The notes below the pieces were generated by a model. It did no database searches, was not told the DNA's origin, and was given only the letters and a program-made list of their open reading frames with translations. 64,000 nt of DNA from Clostridium sp. CAG:417. GTDB lineage: Bacteria; Bacillota_I; Bacilli_A; RF39; UBA660. Positions 32,550 through 39,167 of the stretch are shown piece by piece (position 1 is the first letter of the stretch; each line of letters starts with the position of its first letter). The DNA is taken from assembly GCA_000432835.1 (NCBI GenBank), contig FR890374.1:25485-89484 (forward strand), given 5' to 3'. Both the position numbers and the translations under genes were made by a program.

Positions 32550-32636
32550 GCCTGTGTGGTGGAATTGGTAGACGCGTTGGACTCAAAATCCAATGGTAGC
32601 AATACCGTGTCGGTTCAAGTCCGACCACAGGCACCA
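32550..32636 (+). tRNA. tRNA-Leu (anticodon CAA), type II with long variable arm, CCA encoded
   Basis: Acceptor stem GCCTGTG/CACAGGC, D-arm, anticodon loop CTCAAAA giving anticodon CAA, long variable arm, T-arm GGTTCAAGTCCGACC, 3' ACCA. Confidence 0.85.
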
Positions 32637-32827
32637 GATTGATAGGAAACTCGAACTTTTTCGAGATAATATAAAAACTACTCTCAAATTAAATTGAAAG
32701 TAGTTTTATTTTTTTATTTAGAAGCAAACTTGCAAATTGATATATCAATTTTTCGTGTGTAAAAGGAAATACTCTATATAATTATTATAATTCTTTAAAA
32801 ATTATGATTTATTAGTAATCATTTCAA
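32633..32827 (+). repeat. Direct repeat copy 1 (tRNA-Leu 3' end plus downstream terminator region)
   Basis: ACCAGATTGATAGGAAACTCGAACTTTTTC is identical over 30 nt to 35084-35113. Homology continues through a terminator hairpin (AAACTACTctcaaattaaattgaaAGTAGTTT plus a T-run) and a second block, ATTTATTAGTAATCATTTCAAT, at 32806-32827. Confidence 0.8.
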
Positions 32828-33084
32828 TAAGCTTTTTAGAACTATAATTTGGTTTCCTTTATCAATTGTTGCGATTACAATAGTTCTTTTTGAAATATTA
32901 TTGTCAATTTTTATTTCATATAAGAATTTATTATTTAATTCATCTGATATGAATTCTTTAGTAGCATATTCAATCCCAAAACCGGCTTTAATTATAACTA
33001 ACGACTTCTAGTTTTGAATTTATTACATTATTATTTTTATAGAATATATGATATAATATCGGTGAGTTAAAAAAGGAGACGATA

Positions 33085-33918
33085 ATGAAAAATATAATAT
33101 TAGACACAGATTTATATAATGAAATAGATGACCAAATTGCTTTAGCATATGTATTAAAATCAAAAGATGAATTAAATTTAAAAGCAGTTACAATTGCGCC
33201 ATTTACCAAAGGTGAATATAATACAAAAACGTCAATTGATAAAAGTTATGAAGTAGCTAAGAAAATATTTAAAATGTGCAATGAACAAAATGATAAGATA
33301 ATATTTAAAGGGGCTACAGAATATTTTACAAACGATTCAACTCAAACCAATGCAGCAGTTAATGAGATAATACAAATAGCTAAAAAAAATGATAAAACAT
33401 ATATTTTAAGTATAGGATGTATAACTAATATTGCATTAGCAATAAAAAAGGACTCATCAATAATAAACAAAATAGAAGTAATTTGGTTAGGTACTAACTT
33501 TTTATTTATGAAAAATGATGATTTTAATTTTAGACAAGACGTTGAAGCTGTTAGATATGTATTGGATAGTAAAGTAAAAATAACTATAATTCCTGTTTAT
33601 CCGGTAAGCTATGGACTAATGATTTCAAAATATGAATTAGAAAGTAGAATAAGAAATTCTAACAAATTGTGTAATTATTTTTGTGATATATTTACAGATG
33701 ATTACGGTACTGAAAAAATAAGAAGAGTTATATGGGATATTAGCGCTATAGCATATATGATTAATAAAGAATGGTTTGAAACAATGGAAATAAGTTGTCC
33801 TAGAATAAAAGAGGATACATCATTTAAATTAACGAAATTTAGACATAAAATAAAATTTGTCCAAAATCTTGATAGTACTGAAATATATGATGATTTATTT
33901 TCAAAAATTACGAGGTGA
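33085..33918 (+). CDS. Inosine-uridine-preferring nucleoside hydrolase family protein (IUNH)
   Basis: N-terminal ILDTDLYNEIDDQIALAYVL, which is the DxDxxxDD aspartate cluster of nucleoside N-ribohydrolases. Confidence 0.7.
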   Translation: MKNIILDTDLYNEIDDQIALAYVLKSKDELNLKAVTIAPFTKGEYNTKTSIDKSYEVAKKIFKMCNEQNDKIIFKGATEYFTNDSTQTNAAVNEIIQIAKKNDKTYILSIGCITNIALAIKKDSSIINKIEVIWLGTNFLFMKNDDFNFRQDVEAVRYVLDSKVKITIIPVYPVSYGLMISKYELESRIRNSNKLCNYFCDIFTDDYGTEKIRRVIWDISAIAYMINKEWFETMEISCPRIKEDTSFKLTKFRHKIKFVQNLDSTEIYDDLFSKITR

Positions 33919-33924
33919 GGTATA

Positions 33925-34396
33925 TATGAAAATAAAATATTATGGTGATAAAATTGAAAAAAGCACTAGAGCAATATCATTATGTGGACCAACTCCTAGA
34001 AATAATAAAGTAACTAGTTGGAGAAAAGAAGCTTTGAATATATTACAAAATATTAATTATGATGGAATTGTGTATGTTCCGGAGCTAAAAGATGAAACGC
34101 CAGTATTTAAGACAAAGGATGAACAAGTATCTTGGGAGAGAGATTGTTATATGAATTCAAATGTATTATTGTTTTGGGTACCAAGGAAATTTCCATCAAT
34201 GCTAGGCTTAACTACAAATGTAGAATTTGGTTATTGGCTAAAAAGTAAAAAATGCATATATGGTAGACCAGATGGTGCTTATAGAACACACTATTTGGAT
34301 TGGTTATATAATTTAGAATATAATAAAAATCCAATAAATTCATTAGAAGAACTGTTAAAACAAGCAGTAAAAATGAGTAAAGGAGAGCAACTATGA
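33925..34396 (+). CDS. Nucleoside 2-deoxyribosyltransferase-like / dNMP N-glycosidase-fold protein
   Basis: ATG follows GAGGTGAGG. ISLCGPTP matches the YxAGPxF nucleoside-binding motif of the NDT/Rcl fold. TNVEFGYWL places a Glu where the catalytic nucleophile sits. Confidence 0.55.
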
Positions 34397-34962
34397 AAAA
34401 TATAATGATATTTGGGATATGTAGAACCGGGAAGACTACCTTTTCAAAAATGATACAAAAAGAATATAATAACTATCAAATTATAGAAGTTGACACAATC
34501 ATTTCTGCATTACAAAAAACTGTTCCTAATGTTCCAATTGGATTTATTCACGATAATTTAAAAGAAAATAGATTGCCGGAATTTTTAAATTTGTTTATAC
34601 AAAAGAATATTAATAAAAACGGGAAAGAACTAGGTTTTATTATAAATGGGGATTCTATCTTGCCAGAAGATTTATCTAAATATTTTGATTTAAAAGATAT
34701 GATTGTTTATTATTTTGTAACTGAAAAGTTATCTCCTGAACAAATTCTAGAAAATTGTAGGAAGTTTGATTCAAAAGAAGAATGGACTACTAGAAGGTCC
34801 GATGATGAATTATTAAATCATTTTAAATTTTATAAAGATATAGAAAAGAAAATTATAAAAGATTGTAAGATGTATAATATAAAATGCATTGATACATCTG
34901 AAAACAGGCAAATATTATTTAACCAGTTATTGGATGAGGTAAAATGTGAGTTGAATATATAA
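34393..34962 (+). CDS. P-loop NTPase, (deoxy)nucleoside/nucleotide kinase-like
   Basis: Walker A IFGICRTGKTT; about 190 aa, typical of small nucleoside or NMP kinases; coupled to the upstream gene by overlapping stop/start. Confidence 0.55.
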   Translation: MKNIMIFGICRTGKTTFSKMIQKEYNNYQIIEVDTIISALQKTVPNVPIGFIHDNLKENRLPEFLNLFIQKNINKNGKELGFIINGDSILPEDLSKYFDLKDMIVYYFVTEKLSPEQILENCRKFDSKEEWTTRRSDDELLNHFKFYKDIEKKIIKDCKMYNIKCIDTSENRQILFNQLLDEVKCELNI

Positions 34963-35083
34963 ATTTTATGTAATAGTAAAGCTTATTCCAATTTATAAAA
35001 AATATGATATACTTTAGTAAATTGATTGATATTTGTATCAACCTTTATGAGAGCCAAAAGCTGTATATATCTACTTTATTGGT

Positions 35084-35226
35084 ACCAGATTGATAGGAAA
35101 CTCGAACTTTTTCAAGATACTCTCAAATTAAATTGAAAGTAGTTTTATTTTGAAGCTTAATAATATATGAGTAAATTAATATATTGTTAAGTGTGTATAA
35201 AATAATTTATTAGTAATCATTTCAAT
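35084..35226 (+). repeat. Direct repeat copy 2 (degenerate duplicate of the tRNA-Leu 3' flank)
   Basis: Same 30-nt core as copy 1, a truncated hairpin (AAGATACTctcaaattaaattgaaAGTAGTTT) and ATTTATTAGTAATCATTTCAAT at 35205-35226. It lacks the 12-nt block AATATAAAAACT of copy 1. No intact tRNA body precedes it (only GGTACCA). Confidence 0.8.
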
Positions 35227-35268
35227 TTATTTTTAATATTCAAATGATGTTATGATGGAGGTAAGATT

Positions 35269-35925
35269 ATGAATTTAGAAAAAGGAAAAGTTAGTAAAAA
35301 ACAAAAAATAGTTATTTTTGATTTGTTTGGTGTAATTATAGATAGTCATTCTAAAACAAAATATAATGTACATGATGCTAGAAGAGATATAGCAAATGAT
35401 TGTAAATTTGATATAAATATATTTTCAATGTTTTTTAAGGATGCAAAATTTGGTATAACAAATGGAAAAGATTTTGATGATTTAATAAAAGAATATATAA
35501 ATAAATGTAAATCAAATATAGATATTAACAGATTTAAGGAATCATATATAAAATATTATGGAAAAGTTTCTTGTTATGAGAAGGTTATTAAATTTATAGA
35601 AAATTTACAAGATAAAAATTATAAGACAGCAATTTTATCTAAATTGTGTGTTTTGGATAAAATATATTTAGAGAAAAATATAAATCTAAGTAGGTTTGAT
35701 AATTTATTTTTTTCTTGTGATTTAGGAATGGAAAAGCCGGATGTTAAAGTATTTGAATATGTATCTAGGGAAACTGGAATTGAAGGGAAAAATATTTTAT
35801 TTATAGATGATAGTATTAAAAATATAGATGCCGCAAGAGAGCTAGGCTGGAATGTATGCAATGCAACAGGCGATGAATTTGATAAAATAAAAGAAACAGT
35901 GGAAGAATTTTTGATGAAGGATTAA
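35269..35925 (+). CDS. HAD-superfamily hydrolase (phosphatase / nucleotidase-like)
   Basis: Motif I IVIFDLFGVII, with nucleophile Asp in the DxF variant of DxDG; motif IV region FIDDSIKNIDAARELG. Confidence 0.65.
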   Translation: MNLEKGKVSKKQKIVIFDLFGVIIDSHSKTKYNVHDARRDIANDCKFDINIFSMFFKDAKFGITNGKDFDDLIKEYINKCKSNIDINRFKESYIKYYGKVSCYEKVIKFIENLQDKNYKTAILSKLCVLDKIYLEKNINLSRFDNLFFSCDLGMEKPDVKVFEYVSRETGIEGKNILFIDDSIKNIDAARELGWNVCNATGDEFDKIKETVEEFLMKD

Positions 35926-35939
35926 AGGTGTATTTATGC

Positions 35940-36340
35940 GGATTGGAGTAGAGATGGTGTTTTGACAAATGACGATGATTATATTTTAGTAAATATTGTT
36001 ATGAAAATAATCTGAATGGATTTGATAATGCTAATCTGTATGAATATAGAAAACTAAGTTGGAATGAAGATGTAATCAACGATTATAGGAAAAAATATTT
36101 TTTAAATTATGTAAAAAATAAACCTGCACAAAGTTCGCAAGCGATGTTATAAAAAGACTAAGACTTGGTGGACATGAAATATATATTATATCTGCACGAT
36201 ATAAAACATCTGAAAATAAATGGTCATAGTGTAAGAAAATGTACGCTAGAGGGGTTAAGAAAAAACAATATAGAGGTAAAATGTAAATTAGCTGGAAAAC
36301 ATAAAATGAGGATGAAACATTAATTATAATGTGGTTTATC
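35940..36340 (+). pseudogene. Decayed HAD-like nucleotidase/phosphatase gene (multiple frameshifts and stops)
   Basis: Homologous pieces sit in three frames: DWSRDGVLTNDDDYILVNIV; YENNLNGFDNANLYEYRKLSWNEDVINDYRKKYFLNYVKNKPAQS; ASDVIKRLRLGGHEIYIISARYKTSENKWS; TLEGLRKNNIEVKCKLAGKHK. Each is cut by stops. It looks like a single ancestral ORF of about 130 aa. Confidence 0.55.
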
Positions 36341-38027: not shown

Positions 38028-39167
38028 ATGAATTTTGATTTAAGCTGGTTTAAGACAGTACCAGGTTTACTTATTACTTGTGGTGTTGTTTTATTAATAA
38101 TAGCTTTAATAATATTTATTGTTACTTCTAAAAATAATAAAAATGTAAAGAAGGAAGCTCAAAATAATAATCCAAAGGGAGAGGATACTACTCCTAAAGA
38201 TAATGTTCAGCCTGTTTCTGATAGTGTTTCTAGTGAAACAGTTGTAGCAGTTAATACGGATGCTGGTTCTAAGACATCTGTAGAAACTCCTATGCAAAAT
38301 GCTACTCCGGTTACTGAAAATGTTGGAATAGAATCTCTTCAAAATATGCAACCTACACAGACAGTTAATCCAACTCCTATTGAAGTTGAGACTGTAAGTA
38401 GTGCTCCAGTAGTTGAAGATACTCCAGCTCTATCTAGTCCTGTAGTAAATAATACTACTGTTGATGCTTATCAAGCAATGGCTAATAGTGCTGCTATTTT
38501 AAATGATAATTATGTTCAAGAACCAGTAGCTCCTGTTAGTCAAAGTGTAGAACCAATTGAAGTAGCTCCTGAAGTTACTCCAGTAATGAATAGTGTAACT
38601 GCTCCAGCAACTCCAGTTGAAGTTGCTCCAATTCTTGATACTCCAGTAGTTCAACCAGAAGTTTCTTCTCCAATTAATCCTGAAGTTATTTCTCCAAGTG
38701 TTGATGCTATTCCAACTCCAGTTGCTCCTACTGTTTCTAGTGTAAGCAATGAACAACATGCTATATATGGAGGAGTTAGTCAAATTTTACCTAATGATAT
38801 GTCAATCAATACTGGCTCTAGTAATCATCAAATTTATGGTGGGGCTAATCCTTTAGAGAATACGCAATCATTACCAATTATGGGTAATACACAACCTGAA
38901 ATGTCTACTGCACCAGTATCAGTTGCTCCTGAAGTAGCTCCAGTTGTTCCAGATATTCCTAGTGTAAATGCTACACCAATAATTCCAAATGTATCAGTAA
39001 CACCAGTGGAGGAAAATATAGTTATTCCAACACCTGAAGTTTCAACACCAGTTGTTCCAAGTGGATTAGAGCAACAAAATCAAGTACCTATAGTTCCTAC
39101 TGGTATACCATCAGTACAAGTTACAGCAACGGCGCCTATAATGCCAGCTGATAATCAACAATTATAA
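38028..39167 (+). CDS. Membrane-anchored low-complexity Pro/Val/Thr/Ser-rich protein
   Basis: Single N-terminal TM, then about 340 aa of degenerate P-V-(A/T/S)-P-E-V repeats (VAPEVTPV, VEVAPIL, PEVSSPINPEVISPS). Probably extracytoplasmic. Confidence 0.6.
   Translation: MNFDLSWFKTVPGLLITCGVVLLIIALIIFIVTSKNNKNVKKEAQNNNPKGEDTTPKDNVQPVSDSVSSETVVAVNTDAGSKTSVETPMQNATPVTENVGIESLQNMQPTQTVNPTPIEVETVSSAPVVEDTPALSSPVVNNTTVDAYQAMANSAAILNDNYVQEPVAPVSQSVEPIEVAPEVTPVMNSVTAPATPVEVAPILDTPVVQPEVSSPINPEVISPSVDAIPTPVAPTVSSVSNEQHAIYGGVSQILPNDMSINTGSSNHQIYGGANPLENTQSLPIMGNTQPEMSTAPVSVAPEVAPVVPDIPSVNATPIIPNVSVTPVEENIVIPTPEVSTPVVPSGLEQQNQVPIVPTGIPSVQVTATAPIMPADNQQL

Follow-up and report, generated by a model that had tools for sequence, protein, structure and literature searches.

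A tRNA-associated mobile cassette encoding a nucleoside hydrolase, a PF15891 protein and a P-loop kinase in a reduced-genome gut Firmicute, with a tentative role in base release from nucleosides and nucleotides

We analysed a 64,000-nt stretch of DNA (the window; contig FR890374.1, positions 25,485 to 89,484) of Clostridium sp. CAG:417, an uncultured gut Firmicute with a genome of ~1.2 Mb that is very common in metagenome assemblies. The window has a G+C content of ~26%. In it, a cassette set among sporulation and housekeeping genes (SpoVA, ScpA/B, SerRS, GatC) encodes a nucleoside hydrolase of the inosine-uridine nucleoside hydrolase (IUNH) family, a protein of the nucleoside deoxyribosyltransferase (NDT)/Rcl fold and a P-loop kinase. 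These genes and a haloacid dehalogenase (HAD) family gene lie on the same strand 3′ of the tRNA-Leu(CAA) gene (32550..32636, + strand; ARAGORN; Rfam tRNA, 57.9 bits), which itself lies 3′ of ScpB and is an integration target or hotspot. The initial annotation of this DNA had described three tightly linked genes, the second and third overlapping stop to start. All of the described open reading frames (ORFs) were found, the ATGA overlap was confirmed and every quoted motif is present in the proteins.

The first gene (33085..33918, + strand) encodes a short-form IUNH-family nucleoside N-ribohydrolase of 277 aa, matched by PF01156 (IU_nuc_hydro) well above the gathering cut-off (E 1.9e-25, 90.6 bits, cut-off 34.2); its PDB matches include IunH-2 (3t8i, E 2e-11). 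The family had been proposed from a cluster of aspartates, which was found as DTDLYNEIDD and supplies D8, D10, D16 and D17 of the Ca2+/ribose-binding DxDxxxDD motif, with a two-residue insertion in the comparison with 4kpo (IIIDTDP--GIDD vs IILDTDLYNEIDD). DFN145-147 aligned with EFN of 3t8i and 1q8f, and D219 with the Asp of the YeiK HD pair, the C-terminal Ca2+-binding Asp. Trp218 stands in place of the YeiK catalytic His239 (VIWD vs PVHD), and the protein therefore lacks the His of IUNH group I (IU-NH / RihA-C). A Trp at this position is typical of purine-specific IAG-type hydrolases, a lead to the substrate and not a test of it.

The second gene (33926..34396, + strand) encodes a protein of 156 aa of the PF15891 family (Nuc_deoxyri_tr2; E 3.9e-10, 40.4 bits, gathering cut-off 30). 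The sensible start is the ATG at 33926, 7 nt past the gene 1 stop; the ORF list had a TTG at 33857. Foldseek with the AlphaFold2 (AF2) model (predicted local distance difference test, pLDDT, 89.6) detected 4mcj as the best match (template modelling score, TM, 0.70-0.74; E 3e-7), followed by NDT and purine deoxyribosyltransferase (PDT) enzymes, the CMP N-glycosidase MilB (TM 0.57-0.61) and YtoQ. The profile and fold data bear out the NDT/Rcl assignment and rule out an unrelated Rossmann fold. At the level of single sequences the link is faint: phmmer with gene 2 against PDB gave no match at E<=10, the sole sensible alignment of the family profile to PDB was 4mcj (E 0.15), and hhalign probabilities were 0.3% for DNPH1 and 4% for the L. 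leichmannii NDT, both compared as unverified sequence copies. A direct sequence tie to solved enzymes was set aside, and the phosphate-binding residues are not assignable by links as weak as these.

The SLCGPTP and VEFGYWL motifs of gene 2 fall in the best-conserved blocks of the family alignment, where GPT(P)R25, W32-R33, P52-E53, W70-E71, F83-W84-x-P86-R87, T96-T97-N98-V-E100-F-G-Y, Y112-G-R-P115 and L124-D125 are invariant and R72 is nearly so. Glu100, invariant in TTNVEFGY, aligned with the E of LLEMG in 4mcj (the ExG nucleophile), and in the same low-probability hhalign comparison it fell on the nucleophile E98 of the L. leichmannii NDT. The catalytic triad of NDT, Rcl and DmtZ consists of Tyr, Asp/Asn and Glu (PMC12884076). 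The triad Tyr (Y7 in NDT, Y13 in Rcl, Y6 in DmtZ), three residues before the conserved Gly, corresponds by motif alignment to Ser18 in the window protein, to Phe or Val in relatives and to Phe in 4mcj. This Tyr marks the deoxy-specific NDT/Rcl enzymes, so the "deoxy" part of the chemistry first proposed for the protein is not sustained. MilB is said (Sikowitz, 2013) to have Phe at the triad-Tyr position, controlling the preference for ribo or deoxy substrates. A search on PF15891 or Nuc_deoxyri_tr2 in the literature library used found no paper.

The third gene (34393..34962, + strand), translationally coupled to the NDT-like gene through the ATGA overlap, encodes a P-loop small-molecule kinase of 189 aa with the Walker A motif GICRTGKTT. 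Its AF2 model (pLDDT 92.9) matched UMP-CMP kinase, AK6-like, dTMP kinase and NRK1 structures in Foldseek (TM ~0.6-0.67, E 4e-7 to 3e-5). This is a fold of the nucleoside monophosphate (NMP)-kinase/nucleoside-kinase type, in which NRK1 (TM 0.59-0.62) scores below UMP-CMP kinase and AK6. G8, R11, G13, K14, T16, D34 and R172 are kept across the kinase family. Asp34, after strand 2, aligned with the QDD motif of NRK1 and is not followed by an Arg of the adenylate kinase (AK) type, suggesting a hydroxyl acceptor. The window protein and 20 relatives gave no Pfam or NCBIfam match above cut-off; AAA_17/AAA_18, shikimate kinase, adenylate kinase and similar families appeared below threshold, and dNK (PF01712) was not matched at all by the gene 3 product or its relatives. 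Assignment to a curated family through the 20 relatives was given up, the matches being sub-threshold and mutually inconsistent. The call of a kinase is well founded in the Walker A motif and the nucleoside/NMP-kinase-type fold, with housekeeping families matching below threshold at most.

The exhaustive hidden Markov model search for the wider kinase family gave 272 representatives at E<=1e-10, with heterogeneous contexts and with fusions to glycosyltransferase family 2 (GT2) domains, tandem kinase repeats or DUF4298. Several distant kinases (P0286, P0287, P0304, P0272, P0279, P0353) have an N-terminal GT2 glycosyltransferase fusion or are tandem repeats of ~527 aa, suggesting that the acceptor of the family may not always be a nucleoside. 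The wider family was discarded as a guide to the substrate, as its fusions and contexts are too mixed to be informative on nucleosides. The NDT-like gene is missing beside one further-removed kinase (58% identical), which adjoins a paralogous kinase and a HAD gene. In two unrelated contexts (L095 4597-7772 and L192 3788-5576) a gene for a TrmA/RlmD-like (tRNA_U5-meth_tr) methyltransferase lies directly 5′ of the family kinase; in L095 a paralogous kinase and a HAD gene come next.

The co-occurrence of the genes was analysed with one genome per species: 235 gene 2 relatives were found and the best 80 were examined, as a close set of 19 loci (L011-L029; NDT-like protein at least 57% identical) and a distant set of 61 loci (47-55%). 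The kinase gene stands directly 3′ of the NDT-like gene, mostly with a 4-nt overlap, in all 18 close loci with enough downstream DNA. IUNH accompanies the pair in 12 of the 19 close loci, intact and directly upstream in 11 and within 3 kb downstream in one (L018), and in 6 of these 12 it is fused to an N-terminal NT5C 5′(3′)-nucleotidase domain. The genes thus co-occur elsewhere, in line with the original view of a linked cassette, and the arrangement is not due to chance. IUNH is fragmented in L014, reduced to remnants in L018 and L019 and absent in L016, L017, L020, L023 and L027. IUNH is often lost while the pair is kept, which makes the NDT-like/kinase pair the core unit and IUNH a frequent, dispensable companion; the three genes are not an obligate unit.

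Phosphohydrolases flank the pair in several loci: His_Phos_1 in L018 and L021, HD in L021, L026 and L028, and HAD in the window. In L018 a gene for an Imp-YgjV membrane protein, which we take to be related to PnuC, is located 3′ of the NT5C-IUNH gene. The pair has a housekeeping setting in L027 and L091-94, where genes for an aldose epimerase, the NDT-like protein, the kinase and valyl-tRNA synthetase (ValRS) follow one another and the kinase gene overlaps ValRS.

The NDT-like family comprises more than 1200 protein clusters, with members in 235 species-level genomes and ~95 viral contigs. The distant set comes from reduced-genome 'Bacilli', 'Tenericutes' and 'Mycoplasma sp. CAG' metagenome-assembled genomes (MAGs). 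Here the NDT-like gene is a stand-alone gene: none of the 61 loci has a homologue of the kinase, and no partner within two genes recurs in more than 6 of them. Nucleotide phosphoesterases directly adjoin the NDT-like gene in 13 of the 61 (NUDIX in 4, PF01663 nucleotide pyrophosphatase in 4, PHP in 3 and HD in 2). Three Bacilli/Tenericutes MAGs (L074, L075 and L081, match from 7001 on) encode the NDT-like domain fused to a DUF6829 domain of ~400 aa. In IMG/VR, 95 viral contigs (L099-L178), many of 150-600 kb, encode PF15891 relatives with 35-47% identity, and 31 of the 79 clustered viral proteins have a C-terminal NUDIX fusion; Metallophos and dNMP-kinase-like genes are common neighbours, and the kinase family is absent from viral contigs. 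The viral PF15891 gene is apparently an uncharacterised nucleotide-metabolism gene of large phages and viruses.

The cassette is carried on mobile DNA, which had been noticed in the initial annotation and is supported more strongly than was visible from the window. A module of 2.07 kb (33014-35087) is 91-92% identical at the nucleotide level in five other species (L011-L015) with unrelated flanks, the homology starting at 33014-33034 and ending abruptly at 35080-35087. The left end of the module (33014..33084, + strand) includes a promoter-like TGATATAAT (33049-33057) and a probable ribosome-binding site AAAGGAGA (33071-33078). The repeat reported to bracket the cassette is real and duplicates the 3′ end of tRNA-Leu(CAA) and the DNA downstream of it (pairs 32630-32712 / 35081-35151 and 32804-28 / 35202-26; repeat families D1, D2 and D4). 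The first copy (32630..32828, + strand) consists of the last 7 nt of the tRNA, the terminator, with terminator-like hairpins at 32650-32707, and downstream DNA; the second (35081..35226, + strand) is a displaced tRNA 3′ end with its downstream DNA.

The right side of the module is a conserved element of ~100 nt (34980..35088, + strand) that ends in the tRNA-like GCACCA and was detected by nhmmer in L011-L018 and L028 (E 1e-17 to 1e-29). It contains a promoter-like TTGCAA-17-TGTGATATAC and two short palindromes (TTGATA..TATCAA, GTAGAT.ATCTAC). We read it as the probable terminal/att arm of a mobilisable element of the serine-recombinase type. The element gave no Rfam match (the Rfam search returned the tRNA alone). 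A riboswitch or small RNA was considered and rejected: RNAalifold predicted two short invariant hairpins (-2.9 kcal/mol) with no covariation, and the downstream genes are unrelated or on the opposite strand.

Locus L012 has an intact element, in the order tRNA-Tyr, serine recombinase, Mob_Pre relaxase, a small gene, IUNH, NDT-like, kinase and terminal element. Other tRNA-Leu genes precede the module by 65-95 nt in L011 and L013, and L028 has the relaxase end and the terminal element with the cassette missing. These loci indicate that the cassette is carried by a family of integrative mobilisable elements that target tRNA genes. No recombinase or relaxase was found in the window, where the cargo, the terminal element, a truncated LysR gene and the two copies of the tRNA 3′ end with downstream DNA are what is left, and the element is therefore degenerate.

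In strains of the same species a second element of ~6.3 kb is inserted exactly at the tRNA-Leu 3′ end (~32637; L006 403-6689, L184 6571-12570). Besides a serine recombinase and a Mob_Pre relaxase, this element carries genes for a penicillin-binding protein (PBP)-like S11/beta-lactamase2 protein and VanZ, and it forms a tandem array at tRNA-Leu with the degenerate cassette-bearing element. The recombinase and relaxase of L012 are 54% and 47% identical, respectively, to the proteins of the L006 element. The cassette is present in all 23 contigs that were read with the ScpB of this species, and no empty site was found among them; an identical copy of the NDT-like protein occurs in 4542 indexed assembly blocks, and the contigs are 1.0-1.3 Mb long.

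The HAD gene (35269..35925, + strand) encodes a HAD-IA phosphatase similar to YihX and to the epoxide hydrolase N-terminal domain. The phosphatase assignment stands, with PF00702 and PF13419 above their cut-offs (56.2 and 51.5 bits, cut-offs 26.4 and 23.8, E 1e-13 to 1e-15); TIGR02247 (E 2e-21) and PRK09456 (E 6e-13) in NCBIfam were both below cut-off and gave no equivalog-level assignment. The gene was initially counted in the toolkit. It lies beyond the end of the mobile module, and strains L002, L009, L181, L182 and L186 lack it or have other DNA in its place, which makes it a neighbour and not a fixed part of the cassette. A second, decayed HAD gene had also been proposed, and a probable decayed NT5C/HAD-like gene (35936..36323, + strand) is plausible from the broken MRIGVEMVF* frame and the NT5C-like motif GHEIYIISAR; the family match behind it is weak, covering 17-42 aa of the NT5C domain of NT5C-IUNH fusions with E 0.011 to 0.7 in tiny searches. 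In the same five strains the segment 35112-36334, with the HAD gene and the pseudogene, is replaced by ~720 nt of unrelated DNA that appears to be non-coding.

The 3′ remnant of a truncated LysR-type regulator gene (32816..33000, - strand) is located between the cassette and the terminator of the tRNA. By tblastn it matches the C-terminal ends of LysR-like genes that are intact in L037 and L068 (53-57% aa identity, E 1e-9 to 1e-11); no intact LysR ORF is present at these positions. Intact LysR genes are located near NDT-like genes in L013, L019, L021, L050, L051 and L068. Elsewhere in the window (38028-39167), the product of a 379-aa ORF has a membrane anchor at its N-terminus and a long region of low complexity rich in Pro, Val, Thr and Ser; local G+C rises to 35%, and the ORF has no Pfam match in the precomputed tables.

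Our preferred, still tentative, reading of the three genes is a mobile salvage/catabolic module with which gut Firmicutes that have reduced genomes and scavenge nucleotides would free the bases of nucleosides and nucleotides. IUNH would hydrolyse ribonucleosides to base and ribose. The P-loop kinase would phosphorylate the nucleoside 5′-OH to give the nucleoside 5′-monophosphate, and the NDT-like enzyme, through Glu100, would cleave the N-glycosidic bond of the monophosphate to free base and (deoxy)ribose-5-phosphate, or would pass the phosphopentose to another base. The neighbouring phosphatases (HAD in the window; NT5C, HD and histidine phosphatase elsewhere) may return nucleotides to nucleosides, and bases and pentose phosphate could be reused without nucleoside phosphorylases. 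Gene structure, folds, conserved coupling, mobility and the lack of defence signatures are direct observations; we infer the substrates, the order of the steps and the hydrolase or transferase nature of the NDT-like enzyme. The coupling of the pair across species, the phosphohydrolases beside it, the ValRS-linked loci, the retention of the cassette in the species and the lack of defence signatures all favour this reading. By Rosetta-stone logic, the NUDIX fusions and phosphoesterase neighbours suggest that PF15891 enzymes most likely act on nucleoside monophosphates, and in the clade of the window the kinase may take the role of NUDIX as the monophosphate supplier. Among the characterised members of the superfamily all hydrolases use (d)NMPs and the transferases use nucleosides (PMC12884076).

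Several points weigh against this reading. We know of no characterised member of the NDT-like family or of its dedicated kinase, and the substrates are therefore read from context alone. The wider kinase family is heterogeneous, with the GT2 glycosyltransferase fusions and a weak similarity to Zeta-toxin and chloramphenicol phosphotransferase (CPT), which leaves room for acceptors other than nucleosides. The pair often persists where IUNH has been lost or has decayed (L014, L016-20, L023, L027), and a kinase beside phosphatases resembles a futile cycle. The cassette is also the cargo of a mobilisable element, with a sister element that carries PBP-like and VanZ genes, which fits an accessory resistance or defence function at least as well as core salvage.

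A Lactobacillus-type deoxynucleoside salvage, which would suit a low ribonucleotide reductase capacity, is possible and in our view unlikely: a true nucleoside 2′-deoxyribosyltransferase would swap bases, IUNH would supply the acceptor bases and the kinase would trap the dNMP. The fold of gene 2, the many NDT and PDT structures among its Foldseek matches and the AGP/CGP motif after strand 1, nearer to the transferases (YxAGPxF) than to Rcl (CGSIRGG), are consistent with a transferase, as is the low-probability hhalign pairing of E100 with E98 (unverified sequence copy). The kinase gene 3′ of the NDT-like gene fits an order in which the nucleoside is made and then phosphorylated, and the NT5C family is known for deoxyribonucleotidase activity. 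However, the triad Tyr is missing (Ser18; Phe/Val in relatives), and the arginines R25, R33, R87 and R114, all invariant, and R72, nearly so, together with the TTN motif suggest that the ligand carries a phosphate. NUDIX fusions and pyrophosphatase neighbours likewise favour NMP substrates. IUNH enzymes require the ribose 2′-OH, which makes the partner enzyme ribo-directed.

We regard as quite unlikely a detoxification or resistance cargo, in which the kinase and the two N-glycosidases would destroy toxic nucleoside analogues, nucleoside antibiotics or non-canonical nucleotides, as DNPH1 sanitises hmdUMP. The transport of the module by a serine recombinase and Mob_Pre element (L012), its 91-92% identity across species with different flanks and the PBP-like and VanZ genes of the sister element at the same tRNA would fit such a cargo. 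The kinase family is weakly similar to CPT, Zeta-toxin and Gar-like proteins, and one distant kinase is found in an island with NUDIX, GNAT, Metallophos, Zeta-like kinase and resolvase genes. Against these stand the lack of any match above cut-off to curated resistance families and the presence of the pair in non-mobile housekeeping contexts. The NDT-like family is moreover widespread as a stand-alone chromosomal gene in reduced genomes, suggesting a general metabolic role.

A more speculative idea, which we hold to be improbable, is that PF15891 is a base exchanger at the monophosphate level, a DmtZ-like phospho(deoxy)ribosyltransferase fed by its own kinase. Auxotrophs, and large phages through the NUDIX fusions, could then rewrite the base composition of the nucleotide pool without phosphoribosyl pyrophosphate (PRPP) or nucleoside phosphorylases; as a variant, the cassette could destroy phage-specific modified dNMPs as a defence.

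Anti-phage defence in general, put forward in the initial annotation as one of two readings, gained no positive support and is very unlikely. The kinase, the NDT-like enzyme and IUNH would here destroy (modified) dNMPs, NAD+ or other nucleotides that the phage needs. NDT-like effectors are known in the anti-phage retron type II-A, one of 21 family members weakly matches the PADLOC NDT_II-A model (E 8e-4), the mobile cassette is sited at a tRNA hotspot, distant homologues have Bro-N, KilA-N and WYL genes nearby, and phages carry the PF15891 family themselves. However, for the four window proteins PADLOC-DB v2 gave nothing at E<=1 except the kinase against VakA (E 0.045), PHROGs gave generic matches only, and the cassette has no linked reverse transcriptase, sensor, toxin/antitoxin or regulator. 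The genes are fixed in the species and elsewhere set among housekeeping genes such as ValRS, the phosphatase, nucleotidase and transporter neighbours are metabolic, and the kinase family is missing from viral contigs and has no defence context.

Least probable of all is a nicotinamide riboside (NR)/NAD salvage by an NRK-like kinase, an Urh1-like NR hydrolase, an NDT-like enzyme acting on the base of nicotinamide or nicotinic acid mononucleotide (NMN/NaMN) and phosphatases serving as NMN nucleotidases: human NRK1 is among the closest kinase PDB sequence matches (E 0.016-0.3; catalytic Asp aligned, Foldseek TM as given above), the Imp-YgjV protein adjoins NT5C-IUNH in L018, and NADases and ADP-ribosyl cyclases are members of the DrHyd/NDT superfamily (PMC9503650), but the similarities are all sub-threshold and generic to P-loop kinases, UMP-CMP kinase and AK6 outscore NRK1 by fold, and none of the loci examined has a linked PnuC, NadR, NadD or NadE gene.

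A search for the gene combination in the same literature library found no description of this cassette. The pairing of the kinase with PF15891, its spread on mobilisable elements in reduced-genome gut Firmicutes and the viral NUDIX fusions appear to be undescribed, and the chemistry and logic belong to known kinds, namely NDT-superfamily N-glycosidases, IUNH and P-loop kinases. If base release is the function (nucleoside to NMP to base and pentose phosphate, or exchange at the NMP level), it would close a gap in models of the metabolism of gut bacteria with reduced genomes, account for the NDT-NUDIX fusions of large phages and offer a class of biocatalysts of interest for nucleotide-analogue synthesis. 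The cassette would also be a clear case of a metabolic, not a resistance, cargo on a small tRNA-targeting mobilisable element.

Compared with known systems, the retron type II-A effectors have the superfamily fold in common with the window protein, which does not match the NDT_II-A model and has no reverse transcriptase or msr/msd beside it. The best fold match, 4mcj (BDI_0649 of Parabacteroides distasonis, a putative NDT from structural genomics), has the FLAG, W, QVxWE and LxEMG blocks in common with gene 2; it is 16-18% identical and lacks the invariant GPTPR and YGRP motifs. The (d)NMP N-glycosidases DNPH1/Rcl, MilB and BlsM share the fold, with the MilB scores given above, and the gene context suggests a monophosphate substrate for PF15891 as well. 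They belong to PF05014 and not PF15891, there is no sequence-level match and the hhalign comparison with DNPH1 was non-significant.

The NDT and deoxynucleoside kinases of Lactobacillus likewise combine an NDT-fold enzyme and a P-loop kinase in a nucleotide-auxotrophic Firmicute, with an AGP motif after strand 1. The window differs in the missing triad Tyr, in a kinase outside dNK (PF01712), in genes that are coupled and mobile and in an IUNH that is ribo-specific in known members. PsuK phosphorylates pseudouridine and PsuG cleaves pseudouridine-5′-phosphate to the base and ribose-5-phosphate; this sequence, in which a nucleoside is phosphorylated and the glycosidic bond of the monophosphate is then cleaved, is an analogy of mechanism only, as the protein families (PfkB kinase, PsuG fold) are unrelated. 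In the ribose-utilisation loci of Bacteroides a nucleoside hydrolase and ribokinases scavenge ribose (bioRxiv 10.1101/574913), again an IUNH-type hydrolase with kinases in a gut bacterium; there the kinases are of the PfkB type, no NDT-like enzyme is present and the loci are of the polysaccharide-utilisation type with SusC/D, not on a mobilisable element.

The phages with Z genomes encode DutZ, which converts dNTP to dNMP, and DmtZ, an NDT-like dAMP hydrolase/deoxyribose-5-phosphate transferase (PMC12884076). The partner in the window is a kinase and not a pyrophosphatase, the host is a bacterium and not a Z-genome phage, the closest structures are DNPH1 and MilB for DmtZ versus 4mcj for the window protein, the triad Tyr of DmtZ is Ser here and the activity of PF15891 is a prediction. 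Both systems place an NDT-superfamily enzyme with a Glu nucleophile adjacent or fused to a putative or known producer of monophosphates, and the viral PF15891-NUDIX proteins have the same architecture.

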